64,000 nt of DNA, taken from Escherichia coli (lineage in GTDB: Bacteria; Pseudomonadota; Gammaproteobacteria; Enterobacterales; Enterobacteriaceae). Made by a program: the position numbers and the translations under genes. Numbering within the stretch: the stretch's first letter is position 1; every line of letters starts with the position of its first letter. The notes beneath the pieces were generated by a model. That model made no database searches. It was given only the letters and a program-made list of their open reading frames with translations, and was not told where the DNA came from. Positions 8,859 to 58,713 of this stretch are shown one piece after another. The DNA is taken from the NCBI RefSeq assembly GCF_030013205.1, contig NZ_CP122648.1. One strand, written 5' to 3'.

Positions 8859-10895
8859 ATGGATACGCCACGCCCACAGTTATTAGATTTTCAATTTCAT
8901 CAGAATAACGACAGTCTTACCCTACGTTTTCAGGGCCGTCTTATTTTAACCCATAGTAAAGATAATCCTTGTTTATGGATTGGCTCAGGTATAGCGGATA
9001 TCGATATGTTCCGCGGTAATTTCAGCATTAAAGATAAATTGCAGGAGAAGATTGCGCTCACCGACGCTACCGTCAGCCAGTCACCGGATGGCTGGTTAAT
9101 CCATTTCAGCCGTGGTTCTGACATTAGCGCCACGCTGCGTATCTCTGCCGACGAACAGGGCCGTTTATTGCTGGAACTACAAAACGACAACCTTAACCAC
9201 AACCGTATCTGGCTGCGCCTTGCCGCTCAACCAGAGGACCATATCTACGGCTGCGGTGAACAATTCTCCTACTTTGATCTGCGCGGCAAACCGTTCCCGC
9301 TATGGACCAGTGAACAAGGCGTTGGTCGCAACAAGCAAACCTATGTCACCTGGCAGGCCGACTGCAAAGAGAACGCGGGCGGCGACTATTACTGGACTTT
9401 CTTCCCACAGCCTACGTTTGTCAGCACGCAGAAGTATTACTGCCATGTTGATAACAGTTGCTACATGAACTTCGACTTTAGCGCCCCGGAATACCATGAA
9501 CTGGCGCTGTGGGAAGACAAAGCAACGCTGCGTTTTGAATGTGCTGATACATACATCTCCCTGCTGGAAAAATTAACTGCCCTGCTGGGACGCCAGCCAG
9601 AACTGCCCGACTGGATTTATGACGGGGTAACGCTCGGCATTCAGGGCGGGACGGAAGTGTGTCAGAAGAAACTGGACACCATGCGTAACGCGGGTGTGAA
9701 GGTTAACGGCATCTGGGCGCAGGACTGGTCCGGGATCCGTATGACCTCTTTTGGCAAACGCGTAATGTGGAACTGGAAGTGGAACAGCGAAAACTATCCG
9801 CAACTGGACTCACGTATTAAGCAGTGGAACAAAGAGGGCGTGCAGTTCCTGGCCTATATCAACCCGTATGTAGCCAGCGATAAAGATCTCTGCGAAGAGG
9901 CGGCAAAGCGCGGTTATCTGGCAAAAGATGCCTCTGGCGGCGACTATCTGGTGGAGTTTGGCGAGTTCTATGGCGGCGTTGTCGATCTCACCAATCCAGA
10001 AGCCTACGCCTGGTTCAAGGAAGTGATCAAAAAGAACATGATTGAACTTGGCTGCGGCGGCTGGATGGCTGACTTCGGCGAGTATCTGCCCACCGACACG
10101 TACCTGCATAACGGCGTCAGCGCGGAAATTATGCATAACGCCTGGCCCGCGCTGTGGGCGAAATGTAACTACGAAGCCCTTGAAGAAACGGGCAAGCTCG
10201 GCGAGATCCTCTTCTTTATGCGCGCCGGTTCTACCGGTAGCCAGAAATACTCCACCATGATGTGGGCGGGCGACCAGAACGTCGACTGGAGTCTCGACGA
10301 TGGCCTGGCGTCGGTTGTCCCGGCGGCGCTGTCGCTGGCAATGACCGGACATGGCCTGCATCACAGCGACATTGGCGGTTACACCACCCTGTTTGAGATG
10401 AAGCGCAGCAAAGAGCTGCTGCTGCGCTGGTGCGATTTCAGCGCCTTCACGCCGATGATGCGCACCCACGAAGGTAACCGTCCTGGCGACAACTGGCAGT
10501 TTGACGGCGACGCGGAAACCATCGCCCATTTCGCCCGTATGACCACCGTCTTCACCACCCTGAAACCTTATCTGAAAGAGGCCGTCGCGCTGAATGCGAA
10601 GTCCGGTCTGCCGGTCATGCGCCCGCTGTTCCTGCATTACGAAGACGATGCGCACACTTACACCCTGAAATATCAGTACCTGTTAGGTCGCGACATTCTG
10701 GTCGCTCCGGTGCATGAAGAAGGCCGTAGCGACTGGACGCTCTATCTGCCGGAGGATAACTGGGTTCACGTCTGGACGGGTGAAGCGTTCCGGGGCGGGG
10801 AAGTTACCGTTAATGCGCCCATCGGCAAGCCGCCGGTCTTTTATCGCGCCGATAGCGAATGGGCGGCACTGTTCGCGTCGTTAAAAAGCATCTAA
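8859..10895 (+). CDS. yihQ: Sulfoquinovosidase (glycoside hydrolase family 31)
   Basis: 678-aa ORF; GH31-like; preceded by a 204-bp AT-rich intergenic region. Confidence 0.9.
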   Translation: MDTPRPQLLDFQFHQNNDSLTLRFQGRLILTHSKDNPCLWIGSGIADIDMFRGNFSIKDKLQEKIALTDATVSQSPDGWLIHFSRGSDISATLRISADEQGRLLLELQNDNLNHNRIWLRLAAQPEDHIYGCGEQFSYFDLRGKPFPLWTSEQGVGRNKQTYVTWQADCKENAGGDYYWTFFPQPTFVSTQKYYCHVDNSCYMNFDFSAPEYHELALWEDKATLRFECADTYISLLEKLTALLGRQPELPDWIYDGVTLGIQGGTEVCQKKLDTMRNAGVKVNGIWAQDWSGIRMTSFGKRVMWNWKWNSENYPQLDSRIKQWNKEGVQFLAYINPYVASDKDLCEEAAKRGYLAKDASGGDYLVEFGEFYGGVVDLTNPEAYAWFKEVIKKNMIELGCGGWMADFGEYLPTDTYLHNGVSAEIMHNAWPALWAKCNYEALEETGKLGEILFFMRAGSTGSQKYSTMMWAGDQNVDWSLDDGLASVVPAALSLAMTGHGLHHSDIGGYTTLFEMKRSKELLLRWCDFSAFTPMMRTHEGNRPGDNWQFDGDAETIAHFARMTTVFTTLKPYLKEAVALNAKSGLPVMRPLFLHYEDDAHTYTLKYQYLLGRDILVAPVHEEGRSDWTLYLPEDNWVHVWTGEAFRGGEVTVNAPIGKPPVFYRADSEWAALFASLKSI

Positions 10896-14624: not shown

Positions 14625-15305
14625 TGTGCACAGAAAACCCCCAGCTAGGCTGGGGGTTCCGGAAAGCTTTCAGCTTTGAGCCAGTTATTAAAACCCCTTT
14701 TGATTTGTTAAAACACCTTGCGGTCTGGCAACTGCAAGTGTCAAACAAGAAATCAAAAGGGGGTCCCAATGGGGAACGAAAAGAGCTTAGCGCACACCCG
14801 ATGGAACTGTAAATATCACATGGTTTTTGCGCCAAAATACCGAAGACAGGTGTTCTACAGAGAGAAGCGTAGAGCAATAGGCAGTATTTTGAGAAAGCTG
14901 TGTGAGTGGAAAAGCGTACGGATTCTGGAAGCTGAATGCTGTGCAGATCATATCCATATGCTTGTGGAGATCCCGCCTAAAATGAGCGTATCCGGGTTTA
15001 TGGGATATCTGAAAGGGAAAAGCAGTCTGATGCTTTACGAGCAGTTTGGTGATTTGAAATTCAAATACAGGAACAGGGAGTTCTGGTGCAGAGGGTACTA
15101 CGTCGATACAGTGGGTAAGAACACGGCGAAGATACAGGATTACATAAAGCACCAGCTTGAAGAGGATAAAATGGGAGAGCAGTTATCGATTCCCTATCCG
15201 GGCAGCCCGTTTACGGGCCGTAAGTAACGAAGTTGGATGCAAATGTCAGATCGTGTGCGCCTGTTAGGGCGCGGCTGGTAAGAGAGCCTTATAGGCGCAT
15301 TTGAA
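14625..15305 (+). mobile_element. IS200-family (IS200/IS605) insertion element; ends approximate
   Basis: Contains a 152-aa tnpA ORF nearly identical to Salmonella IS200 TnpA as remembered; perfect hairpin cccccag-ctagg-ctggggg at about 14640-14658 upstream of tnpA; K-12 has no such element between ompL and yihN. Exact left and right ends not determinable without an empty-site comparison. Confidence 0.7.
14769..15227 (+). CDS. tnpA: IS200 transposase TnpA (HUH Y1 transposase)
   Basis: MGNEKSLAHTRWNCKYHMVFAPKYRRQVFY...HIHMLVEIPPK...; HUH motif (HIH) and the catalytic-Tyr region recognised; RBS aaagggg upstream. Confidence 0.9.
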   Translation: MGNEKSLAHTRWNCKYHMVFAPKYRRQVFYREKRRAIGSILRKLCEWKSVRILEAECCADHIHMLVEIPPKMSVSGFMGYLKGKSSLMLYEQFGDLKFKYRNREFWCRGYYVDTVGKNTAKIQDYIKHQLEEDKMGEQLSIPYPGSPFTGRK

Positions 15306-20439: not shown

Positions 20440-20587
20440 AACTTTGCCTCAGGCATTAGAAATAGCGCGTTATTGTACACGGATTAATCGCACTACAAAA
20501 CAGGATCACAAACATCCTCCGCAAACAAGTATTGCAGAGTCCCTTTGTGATCGCTTTCACGGAGCATAAAAAGGGTTATCCAAAGGT

Positions 20588-20640
20588 CATTGCACCAATA
20601 TGGTGCTTAATGTTTCCATTGAAGCACTATATTGGTGCAA
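20588..20640 (+). promoter_or_regulatory. Tandem NtrC (NRI) binding sites / enhancer upstream of glnA
   Basis: tgcaccaatatggtgc (20591-20606) and gcactatattggtgc (20624-20638), both fitting the NtrC TGCACC-N5-GGTGCA dyad. Confidence 0.65.
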
Positions 20641-26650: not shown

Positions 26651-26838
26651 GCTCACTCCTTCCGATGGCGTCTCTGGCGGCTACGGCGTACCGGCGGATG
26701 CCCGTTTCGGGTCATCAGCCGGTTGCGCAGCCACTTTTGTCGCCGCGACAACCGCTGTAGTTTAACGAATAACCACACCAGATAACATATAACCGGAAGG
26801 GTTATCAGCAGAACGGGAAGGCCCACGGCGGCAATCCG

Positions 26839-27348
26839 TTAGTTGCCCCGCAGCAGACGCATCATGTCTTCTTGCTTCTCGTCTTCTTCCTCTTCTTCGT
26901 CATCGTCATAAGAGAGGCCGAGCTTCTGCATCAACTCATCAATACGATCCAGCTTGGCATCCACCCAGGATTGCTCTTCGGCGCTCAGGGTTTCGCCTGC
27001 TTCCAGACGTTCCAGCAGCGCATCCAGACGCTCATCCGTTTCCAGTAACTCCAACTCCGCCTGCGGTGAAAGCATAGGTTTCTCACTCTTCGGTTTGTGC
27101 TGTTTGGTGACTTTTTCAGTCACGCCCAATGGAATAGGGGTTTTACTGCCAATACGTGGATCTTTCGGTGCGTTCTGACCTTTGCTGCCTGACGTGGTGT
27201 TACCGCCCGCTGCGCGGCTGCCCGGCGCATGACCACGACGTTTTTTCTGACGCTTACGGTCACGAGCTTCCTGATCCAGCTCCTCGCGTGTTTTTCGACG
27301 CGCTTTTGCATGACCTTTGCTGCGTGAGTTTGAAGATGATGGTTTCAT
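26839..27348 (-). CDS. yihI: Der GTPase-activating protein YihI
   Basis: ORF 26839..27411 trimmed to [24 protein letters not shown]; highly basic N-terminus, acidic C-terminus; 169 aa. Confidence 0.9.
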
Positions 27349-27413
27349 AATGGTTCGTCTTTTAGCCGTTTTATTCAGTATAGATTTGCGGCGGAATCTA
27401 ACAGAAAGCAAGC

Positions 27414-27659
27414 AAAGAAAAAAGGCGACAGATTACTCTGTCGCCTTTTTTCCTGACTCATAACCCTTAACGGGTCTTACAATCCTTGCAGGCCGCCAAC
27501 ACACCCTGTTTTTCCATTAGCCGGAACAATCCGTGTTGATTCCATTTCCGTTTAATTACGTCTCCGGACGTTTGTCTTCCTGACAATCCTCTGTCTTCGC
27601 CTCCTGGCGCTCCTGACCCTCATCCTGAGTCATTGTTCCTGTTAGCGTCCTCGCTCTAT
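27414..27659 (-). ncRNA. csrC: CsrC small RNA (CsrA-sequestering)
   Basis: Minus strand reads ATAGAGCGAGGACGCTAACAGGAACAATGACTCAGGATGAGGGTCAGGAGCGCCAGGAGG..., with many GGA motifs, ending in the hairpin ggcgacagagtaatctgtcgcc + U-run; matches CsrC as remembered and its known yihA-yihI intergenic location. Confidence 0.85.
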
Positions 27660-27929
27660 GGGTGCTACTTTACGCCTTTGCTTTAAACAAACAATCAACC
27701 GCCATCAGTATTTGCACATTTTCAGAGTTTTATATAAAAGCAATTAACTGATTTATATAGCTTATTTGACATGCATCGCAGAATTTTCTCTGCTATTTCG
27801 CATAAAGACTATCGGCAATGTCTCACAAAGCGTATGGCTTTTACTTACAACGCTCACGCCGAAAAATCCGCCTTTTATTATGGTTCAGGTATAATCGCCG
27901 CAAAGCTTTGACTGACGGAGACGACCGCT

Positions 27930-28562
27930 TTGACTAATTTGAATTATCAACAGACGCATTTTGTGATGAGTGCGCCTGATATTCGCCACCTACCTTCCGA
28001 TACCGGAATTGAAGTGGCTTTTGCAGGCCGTTCCAACGCAGGTAAATCCAGCGCGCTGAACACGCTGACTAACCAGAAAAGCCTGGCTCGTACCTCAAAA
28101 ACCCCAGGGCGCACCCAGCTTATCAACCTGTTTGAAGTGGCTGACGGCAAGCGTCTGGTTGACCTGCCCGGCTATGGCTACGCGGAAGTCCCGGAAGAGA
28201 TGAAGCGCAAATGGCAGCGCGCGCTCGGCGAATACCTCGAAAAACGTCAGAGCCTGCAAGGTCTGGTGGTGCTAATGGATATTCGCCATCCGCTGAAAGA
28301 TTTGGATCAGCAGATGATTGAGTGGGCGGTAGACAGCAATATCGCCGTTCTGGTGCTGCTAACCAAAGCGGACAAACTGGCAAGCGGCGCACGTAAAGCG
28401 CAATTGAATATGGTGCGTGAAGCGGTGCTGGCGTTTAACGGTGATGTGCAGGTTGAAACCTTCTCTTCACTGAAGAAACAAGGCGTGGACAAGCTGCGGC
28501 AGAAACTGGATACCTGGTTTAGCGAGATGCAGCCTGTAGAAGAAACGCAGGACGGCGAATAA
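27930..28562 (+). CDS. engB: Ribosome biogenesis GTPase EngB (YihA/YsxC)
   Basis: 210-aa ORF starting at a TTG; [22 protein letters not shown]...; G1 GRSNAGKSS. Confidence 0.93.
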
Positions 28563-28685: not shown

Positions 28686-28796
28686 AATAAAAAACGCCCC
28701 AGTCATTACTGACTGGGGCGGCTAAAATATTCAGCCAAATCCGATTACGTGAAGTAAAAGGTCTGAAAGATAGAACATCTTACCTCTGTACCCTAC
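28686..28796 (-). ncRNA. spf: Spot 42 small RNA
   Basis: Minus strand reads GTAGGGTACAGAGGTAAGATGTTCTATCTTTCAGACC...GCCGCCCCAGTCAGTAATGACTGGGGCGTTTTTTATTGGGCG, matching Spot 42 including its terminator; immediately 3' of polA as in K-12. Confidence 0.9.
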
Positions 28797-28943
28797 GCGA
28801 CTAACTTTACTCTTTTTTGTTCAGTTCAGAAAGCATTTTTTGTAATTTTTTTTCAGTTGTTGCATAGGAATTTCTAATAGCCATCACAAAACGTGACAGC
28901 TTATGTTGCTTACTTACGAAAAAAGGGCATGTTCAGGCGAATC

Positions 28944-37890: not shown

Positions 37891-38010
37891 ATGCCTGGCA
37901 GTTCCCTACTCTCGCATGGGGAGACCCCACACTACCATCGGCGCTACGGCGTTTCACTTCTGAGTTCGGCATGGGGTCAGGTGGGACCACCGCGCTAAGG
38001 CCGCCAGGCA
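37891..38010 (-). rRNA. rrfA: 5S ribosomal RNA
   Basis: Minus strand reads TGCCTGGCGGCC...GGAACTGCCAGGCAT over 120 nt, matching E. coli 5S rRNA with at most one mismatch to my recollection. Confidence 0.95.
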
Positions 38011-38102
38011 AATTCTGTTTCATCAGACCGCTTCTGCGTTCTGATTTAATCTGTATCAGGCTGAAAATCTTCTCTCATCCGCCAAAACATCTTCGGCGTT
38101 GT

Positions 38103-41007
<2,905 letters not shown>

Positions 41008-41190
41008 TCACAACCCGAAGATGTTTCTTTCGATTCATCATCGTGTTGCGAAAATTTGAGAGACTCACGAACAACTTTCGTTGTTCAGTGTTTCAATTTT
41101 CAGCTTGATCCAGATTTTTAAAGAGCAAAACTTCGCAGTGAACCTTTGCAGGTACACTCTGAAGTATTTTTTATTTAATCACTACAGAGA

Positions 41191-41266
41191 TGGTGGAGCT
41201 ATGCGGGATCGAACCGCAGACCTCCTGCGTGCAAAGCAGGCGCTCTCCCAGCTGAGCTATAGCCCC
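41191..41266 (-). tRNA. alaT: tRNA-Ala (anticodon UGC), rRNA spacer
   Basis: Minus strand reads GGGGCTATAGCTCAGCTGGGAGAGCGCCTGCTTTGCACGCAGGAGGTCTGCGGTTCGATCCCGCATAGCTCCACCA. Confidence 0.95.
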
Positions 41267-41308
41267 ATAACATGTAGTTAAAACCTCTTCAAATTTGCCG
41301 TGCAAATT

Positions 41309-41385
<77 letters not shown>

Positions 41386-41453
41386 GTAGAGGTTTTACTG
41401 CTCATTTTCATCAGACAATCTGTGTGAGCACTTCAAAGAACGCTTCTTTAAGG

Positions 41454-42995
<1,542 letters not shown>

Positions 42996-56470: not shown

Positions 56471-58713
<2,243 letters not shown>

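Follow-up and report, generated by a model that had tools for sequence, protein, structure and literature searches.

The 246 nt at positions 27414..27659 on the minus strand of the window (the whole stretch of Escherichia coli DNA that was analyzed, 64,000 nucleotides long) are almost certainly E. coli csrC, the gene of a noncoding RNA that acts as a CsrA sponge, with a likely separate yihI promoter behind its terminator. Transcription starts (+1) at 27659 and the annotated 3' end is 27414; the gene corresponds to Rfam family RF00084 and to b4457 of E. coli K-12. This copy is a known gene at a known locus, nearly universal in the species and already known, and no departures from known CsrC biology were found among the features examined. 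Every testable feature that defines CsrC and CsrA-sequestering RNAs in general (Kulkarni et al. 2006, PMC1488887) was found in the window.

An Rfam scan of the whole window matched CsrC (RF00084) at 27406..27659 on the minus strand with 277.9 bits and an E-value of 1e-87, the gathering score of the family being 61; the alignment is full-length, spanning model positions 1-255 of 255, and is not truncated. The RefSeq ncRNA csrC of K-12 (b4457, 246 nt) aligns to 27659..27414 without gaps and with 245 of 246 nucleotides identical. An earlier note, made from the letters of the window alone, had recognized a full-length CsrC match and had proposed these two checks, an alignment to K-12 and an Rfam/Infernal scan; both bear it out, the alignment fixes the coordinates that it gave (27414-27659) as exact, and the strand, which it did not give, is minus. 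The sole mismatch to K-12 is at nt 144, where the window has U and K-12 has A; the base lies directly 5' of one GGA and turns AAGGAA into AUGGAA. Three other aligned Escherichia sequences have U144 as well, and so the substitution is normal variation. The 581-bp spacer between yihA and yihI, inside which csrC has its intergenic place, differs from that of K-12 at three positions, one in csrC and two elsewhere, and from A144U and the two other substitutions no functional difference would be expected.

Among 5426 complete E. coli genomes csrC was found in 5424, with at least 99% identity in 5359. For comparison beyond the species, 43 loci with a conserved csrC pattern from other Enterobacteriaceae species were aligned with the window (n = 44); the approximately 12 genera include Citrobacter, Enterobacter, Salmonella, Leclercia, Lelliottia, Yokenella, Pseudocitrobacter, Superficieibacter and Huaxiibacter, together with other Escherichia. 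The csrC orthologues in this alignment are 244-246 nt long, and wherever flanking sequence was available the order of the genes, with csrC and yihI pointing away from yihA, is kept in all 43 loci of the other species. The constancy of the yihA/yihI neighborhood around csrC was reported by Kulkarni et al. 2006 (PMC1488887).

The core promoter of csrC occupies 27667..27694 on the minus strand, with a -35 hexamer TTGTTT (27694..27689), a spacer of 16 nt, and a -10 hexamer TAAAGT (27672..27667). It is weak, having three of six consensus matches at -35 and four of six at -10, which fits an activator-dependent promoter; TTGT and G-TA-AGT are invariant in 44 of 44 aligned sequences. A consensus promoter scan of 27200..28000 returned zero sigma-70 sites. 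The scan misses both the csrC promoter, whose activity is established, and the yihI promoter candidate described below because their -35 hexamers fall below its cut-off, and since it overlooks an active promoter its empty result is not read as absence of promoters. Farther upstream, at 27810..27827 on the minus strand (-168..-151), the sequence TGTGAGACATTGCCGATA is an exact match, and the single occurrence in the window, of the 18-nt inverted repeat published as the site at which UvrY of the BarA-UvrY system binds at E. coli csrC (Zere et al. 2015, PMC4682653). An additional half-site, TGTAAG, is located at 27849..27844 on the minus strand (-190..-185). The region of csrC that was crosslinked in ChIP-exo extends from -223 to -143 (Zere et al. 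2015, PMC4682653), and the copy of the repeat in the window falls within it.

At the other end of the gene, a terminator scan identified the intrinsic terminator of csrC at 27415..27454 on the minus strand, consisting of an A-tract, a GC-rich stem, a UAAU loop and a U-tract. The hairpin has 18 pairs (7 GC), a loop of 4 nt and the tail UUUUUUCUUU, with a predicted stability of -27.7 kcal/mol; across the 44 species the terminator has 96% column identity and 32 of its 41 columns are invariant. Because the A-tract mirrors the U-tract, the terminator reads on both strands (the plus-strand version has -25.0 kcal/mol), and the same symmetry accounts for a partial Rfam match on the plus strand at model positions 200-244. 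The spacer from the 3' end of csrC to the ATG of yihI, 27413..27349, has exactly 65 nt and is of the same length in K-12, in agreement with the intrinsic terminator and the distance of about 65 nt on the same strand that the earlier note had described. Term-seq data from K-12 place an internal RNA 3' end in csrC, at K-12 position 4051237, which is nt 202 of csrC and position 27458 of the window on the minus strand, just 5' of the terminator hairpin (Adams et al. 2021 supplement, PMC7815308). The csrC entries listed in that Term-seq supplement are all this same internal end, which was scored as not Rho-dependent, with values of 0.50 and 1.02 (Adams et al. 2021, PMC7815308); it may be an intermediate of processing or decay.

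The distance from csrC to yihI falls between 59 and 66 nt in all but two of the 44 species, and for those two the values are artefacts of a string search that met an earlier ATGAAA. The first six bases past csrC are variable, with a deletion of 5 nt in Citrobacter. Seven nt past the 3' end begins a conserved block of 31 nt, TTTCTGTTAGATTCCGCCGCAAATCTATACT (27377..27407, minus strand), in which 24 of the 30 positions from 27406 to 27377 are invariant among the 44 sequences from approximately 12 genera; identity over spacer positions 11-37 is 94%, compared with 81% for the body of csrC and 74% for its promoter. In E. coli the block is single-copy and at least 99% identical in 5418 of 5425 genomes, and a second copy was sought without success in the genomes searched, each of which has it in one place. 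The last six bases of the block, 27382..27377, are an invariant TATACT, the predicted -10 box of yihI, which is preceded by TC in Escherichia, Salmonella and Enterobacter and by TG, making an extended -10, in some Citrobacter. The combination of TC with TATACT, that is TCTATACT, is presumably a sigma-S-like -10 element. The consensus scan is empty at this candidate promoter because of its poor -35. Counting 7 nt past the -10 box puts the predicted start site of yihI at about 27370, 22 nt before the ATG, and the predicted start site and 5' leader together occupy 27349..27376 on the minus strand; the leader is predicted to be unstructured (-1.4 kcal/mol). This position coincides with the start site at -22 that PlatProm predicted for yihI of EHEC with a score of 11.84 (Table 1, PMC4765031). 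Full-text literature searches on the yihI promoter and RpoS yielded the PlatProm prediction only and no experimental start site, and the supplementary data of the SMRT-Cappable-seq and Cappable-seq studies list the genes neither by name nor at the positions expected. Judged from the sequence, the conserved block behind the terminator is most likely a separate promoter of yihI, and the unstructured leader agrees with this. The tight packing of the csrC terminator with the promoter and leader of yihI, which the earlier note had pointed out, finds comparative and indirect support in the conserved block, in the invariant TATACT and in the PlatProm start at -22.

Conservation of a block behind the terminator that is stricter than conservation of csrC itself may mean that the block is an operator, or may come from a constraint imposed by the overlap of terminator and promoter. 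A regulatory coupling of csrC and yihI, either through an operator in the block or through occlusion of the yihI -35 by RNA polymerases terminating on csrC, is unlikely. Compatible with it are the exceptional conservation of the spacer in comparison with ordinary promoter spacers, the fixed distance, and the sigma-S-like character that we assign to the -10 in Escherichia. If such coupling were true, the production of YihI, and hence 50S ribosome biogenesis, would be inversely tied to the activity of the Csr and BarA-UvrY systems. The block is a precise candidate for the promoter or operator that would serve yihI at so short a distance from a strong terminator. In a comparison made by eye and informally, against consensus sequences, the block gave no convincing match to a site for sigma-28, sigma-32, sigma-E, CRP, FNR, ArcA, LexA, IHF or PhoB. 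RNAalifold pairs alignment columns 80-94 with 308-321 (in the window, approximately 27622..27608 with 27406..27393), a pairing of the GGA-rich 5' part of csrC with the pyrimidine-rich block that would occur in any read-through transcript; given that nearly all of the columns are invariant, that there is one compensatory change and that the partner lies beyond the terminator and hence outside the mature RNA, this long-range pairing is probably an artefact of purine and pyrimidine composition.

Less probable still is an arrangement in which yihI has no promoter of its own and csrC serves as its long 5' leader, with yihI expressed mainly by read-through of the terminator. Such an arrangement could draw on the position of csrC and yihI on the same strand only 65 nt apart, on the consensus scan, which placed no sigma-70 promoter in the spacer, and on the near-fixed spacing of the two genes. 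It has to contend with a very strong terminator (-27.7 kcal/mol, with a perfect stem and U6CU3 as its tail), with an invariant TATACT that is suitably spaced from the ATG and better conserved than csrC, with the start at -22 predicted independently by PlatProm (PMC4765031), and with the values of 0.50 and 1.02 by which the region past the internal 3' end of csrC is without Rho dependence (PMC7815308). The strength of the terminator and the conserved -10 box make dependence of yihI on read-through unlikely, and a promoter of its own for yihI is the preferred reading.

The RefSeq annotation of csrC raises the further alternative that the region encodes a small protein, since features named 'hypothetical protein' are placed there elsewhere in E. 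coli. Such a feature lies under the match in all of the E. coli records listed. In the one record that was inspected, that of E. coli O157:H7 PV15-279 as annotated by RefSeq/PGAP, the feature is marked as a pseudogene ('hypothetical protein; frameshifted; internal stop'). It falls within csrC and corresponds to window positions 27467..27633 on the minus strand, and the record has no ncRNA feature in its place. In the window, zero minus-strand ORFs of at least 40 aa lie wholly inside csrC, and the only ORF that reaches the region is an extension of the yihI frame from a TTG start, which is bounded at 27411 and thus outside csrC. Moreover, the K-12 annotation is ncRNA, and what is conserved is hairpins with compensatory changes, not codons. 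A protein-coding function is therefore very improbable, and csrC is read as a gene for a noncoding RNA. Among the records examined, only that of K-12 has a csrC ncRNA feature, and the pseudo-CDS over csrC is probably a systematic misannotation; automated readers of RefSeq/PGAP records for non-K-12 E. coli will miss csrC because a meaningless pseudo-CDS stands there.

The csrC RNA of the window has 14 GGA motifs, the same number as in K-12, among which are counted 9 AGGA and 6 CAGGA in 246 nt. Loss of these motifs was what the earlier note, which had remarked on their multiplicity, had named as evidence against its reading, and all 14 of 14 are retained relative to K-12. Over both strands of the 64 kb, csrC is the 246-nt interval richest in GGA, the mean being 3.0 ± 1.8, and its antisense strand has two. 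The Rfam consensus structure leaves 11 of the 14 motifs fully unpaired, with hairpin loops holding six of them and linkers the other five. The orthologues have 13-16 GGA each, and 12 of the 14 positions each recur in 40 or more of the 44 sequences. The small hairpins of csrC have compensatory changes between AU and GC (23 versus 21 sequences) and between UA and CG (29 versus 14), and the predicted minimum free energy of the RNA, -87.7 kcal/mol, has z = -7.0 in comparison with dinucleotide shuffles. That the GGA motifs and the Rfam match are chance products of a purine-rich spacer with no functional RNA is a negligible prospect, for although mononucleotide shuffles of the A/G-rich csrC sequence average 7.8 ± 2.3 GGA with a maximum of 15, chance does not fit with an Rfam E-value of 1e-87, 245/246 identity to an experimentally characterized gene, GGA positions conserved and hairpins changing in compensatory fashion across genera, and a published UvrY site upstream. 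The second GGA-richest interval of the window, 9563..9808 on the plus strand, has 12 GGA in 246 nt and lies within an ORF of 678 aa (8859..10895, plus strand); it was considered as a CsrA decoy and dismissed, its motifs being most likely due to coding composition.

The closest known relative is CsrC of K-12 (b4457, also named sraK, ryiB or tpk2; RF00084), which shares with the csrC of the window its length, its 14 GGA, the terminator, the distance of 65 nt to yihI, the UvrY repeat and the flanking genes, and differs by A at nt 144 and by the two substitutions elsewhere in the 581-bp spacer. CsrB of E. coli, of the CsrB/RsmB family in Rfam clan CL00106, is likewise a decoy for CsrA with multiple GGA, displayed in hairpin loops (PMC1488887), and like csrC it has UvrY as an activator acting on an 18-nt repeat far upstream (PMC4682653). 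Unlike csrC, it is approximately 360 nt long and located at a different locus, adjoining syd, its repeat is a better palindrome, and IHF is needed by csrB but not by csrC (PMC4682653); a homology search with either of the two RNAs does not retrieve the other (PMC1488887). RsmY and RsmZ in Pseudomonas and CsrB1-4 in Vibrio have an analogous function as GGA-rich sponges of CsrA or RsmA and resemble CsrC in control of the GacA/UvrY type and in having rho-independent terminators (PMC1488887), but belong to separate sequence families with other lengths and genomic contexts.

By its identity with the K-12 gene, the csrC of the window is a CsrA sponge under UvrY control, and its mode of action can be proposed on that footing. 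Transcription would begin at 27659 from the weak sigma-70-type promoter upon activation by phosphorylated UvrY at the repeat at -168..-151, and the transcript would fold into short hairpins that display GGA in their loops and in single-stranded linkers. As a CsrA dimer binds two GGA sites, one CsrC could titrate several dimers off their mRNA targets. The strong intrinsic terminator would end csrC transcription, and the conserved block that begins seven bases on would likely serve as the promoter of yihI, giving two independently controlled units arranged head to tail at approximately 65 nt. Together, CsrC and CsrB determine how much CsrA is free, and in this way influence carbon storage, biofilm formation, motility and the expression of virulence genes; the role of CsrC has been known since 2003, and the copy in the window adds nothing new to CsrC biology. 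Sequestration of CsrA by CsrC and activation of CsrC by UvrY are taken from published work on K-12 (PMC4682653, PMC1488887).

The order of genes in the window is hemN, yihI, csrC, yihA, spf, polA and an rrn operon, inverted relative to the numbering of K-12. The gene downstream of csrC, yihI (26839..27348, minus strand), encodes a Der GTPase-activating protein of 169 aa that matches Pfam PF04220 with 186.5 bits and NCBIfam NF003560 with 169.2 bits and is 100% identical to YihI of K-12. A longer ORF in the yihI frame is also open from an upstream TTG, and the other evidence favors the ATG at 27348..27346, on which the K-12 start, the PGAP start and the Pfam and NCBIfam matches concur. On the other side of csrC, yihA/engB (27930..28562, plus strand) has a TTG start and encodes a ribosome-biogenesis GTPase of 210 aa that matches TIGR03598 with 252.2 bits and is 100% identical to that of K-12; its position on the plus strand from 27930 agrees with the divergent yihI-yihA spacer of the earlier note. 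Spot 42 (28688..28806, minus strand), which additionally encodes SpfP in the K-12 annotation, has the same place as in K-12, flanked by polA and yihA. Besides Spot 42, Rfam matches above the gathering scores were obtained for Erse (58108..58359, minus strand), STnc490 (14636..14759, plus strand), ES222 (20521..20628, minus strand) and StyR-44 (41015..41123, minus strand). A complete rrn operon, its spacer containing two tRNAs, occupies 37893..42995 on the minus strand.

The spacer between yihI and hemN is filled by an ORF of 57 codons with a GTG start (26653..26826, minus strand; VGLPVLLITLPVICYLVWLFVKLQRLSRRQKWLRNRL...), which begins four codons past the TAA of yihI in the same frame and stops 2 nt before the ATG of hemN. 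Its product would have a hydrophobic helix and, after it, a basic tail; the K-12 annotation does not include the ORF. Three observations speak against its being a gene: the start codon is not conserved, being GCA or GTC in other genera, the variable columns number 24, 25 and 33 by codon position and so do not concentrate at the third, and there are zero Pfam or NCBIfam matches. The frame is open in 31 of 31 distinct orthologues from approximately 10 genera, in all of which the other two frames are closed, and the ORF is the same as X067, which was called translated in ribosome profiling of EHEC (PMC4765031).
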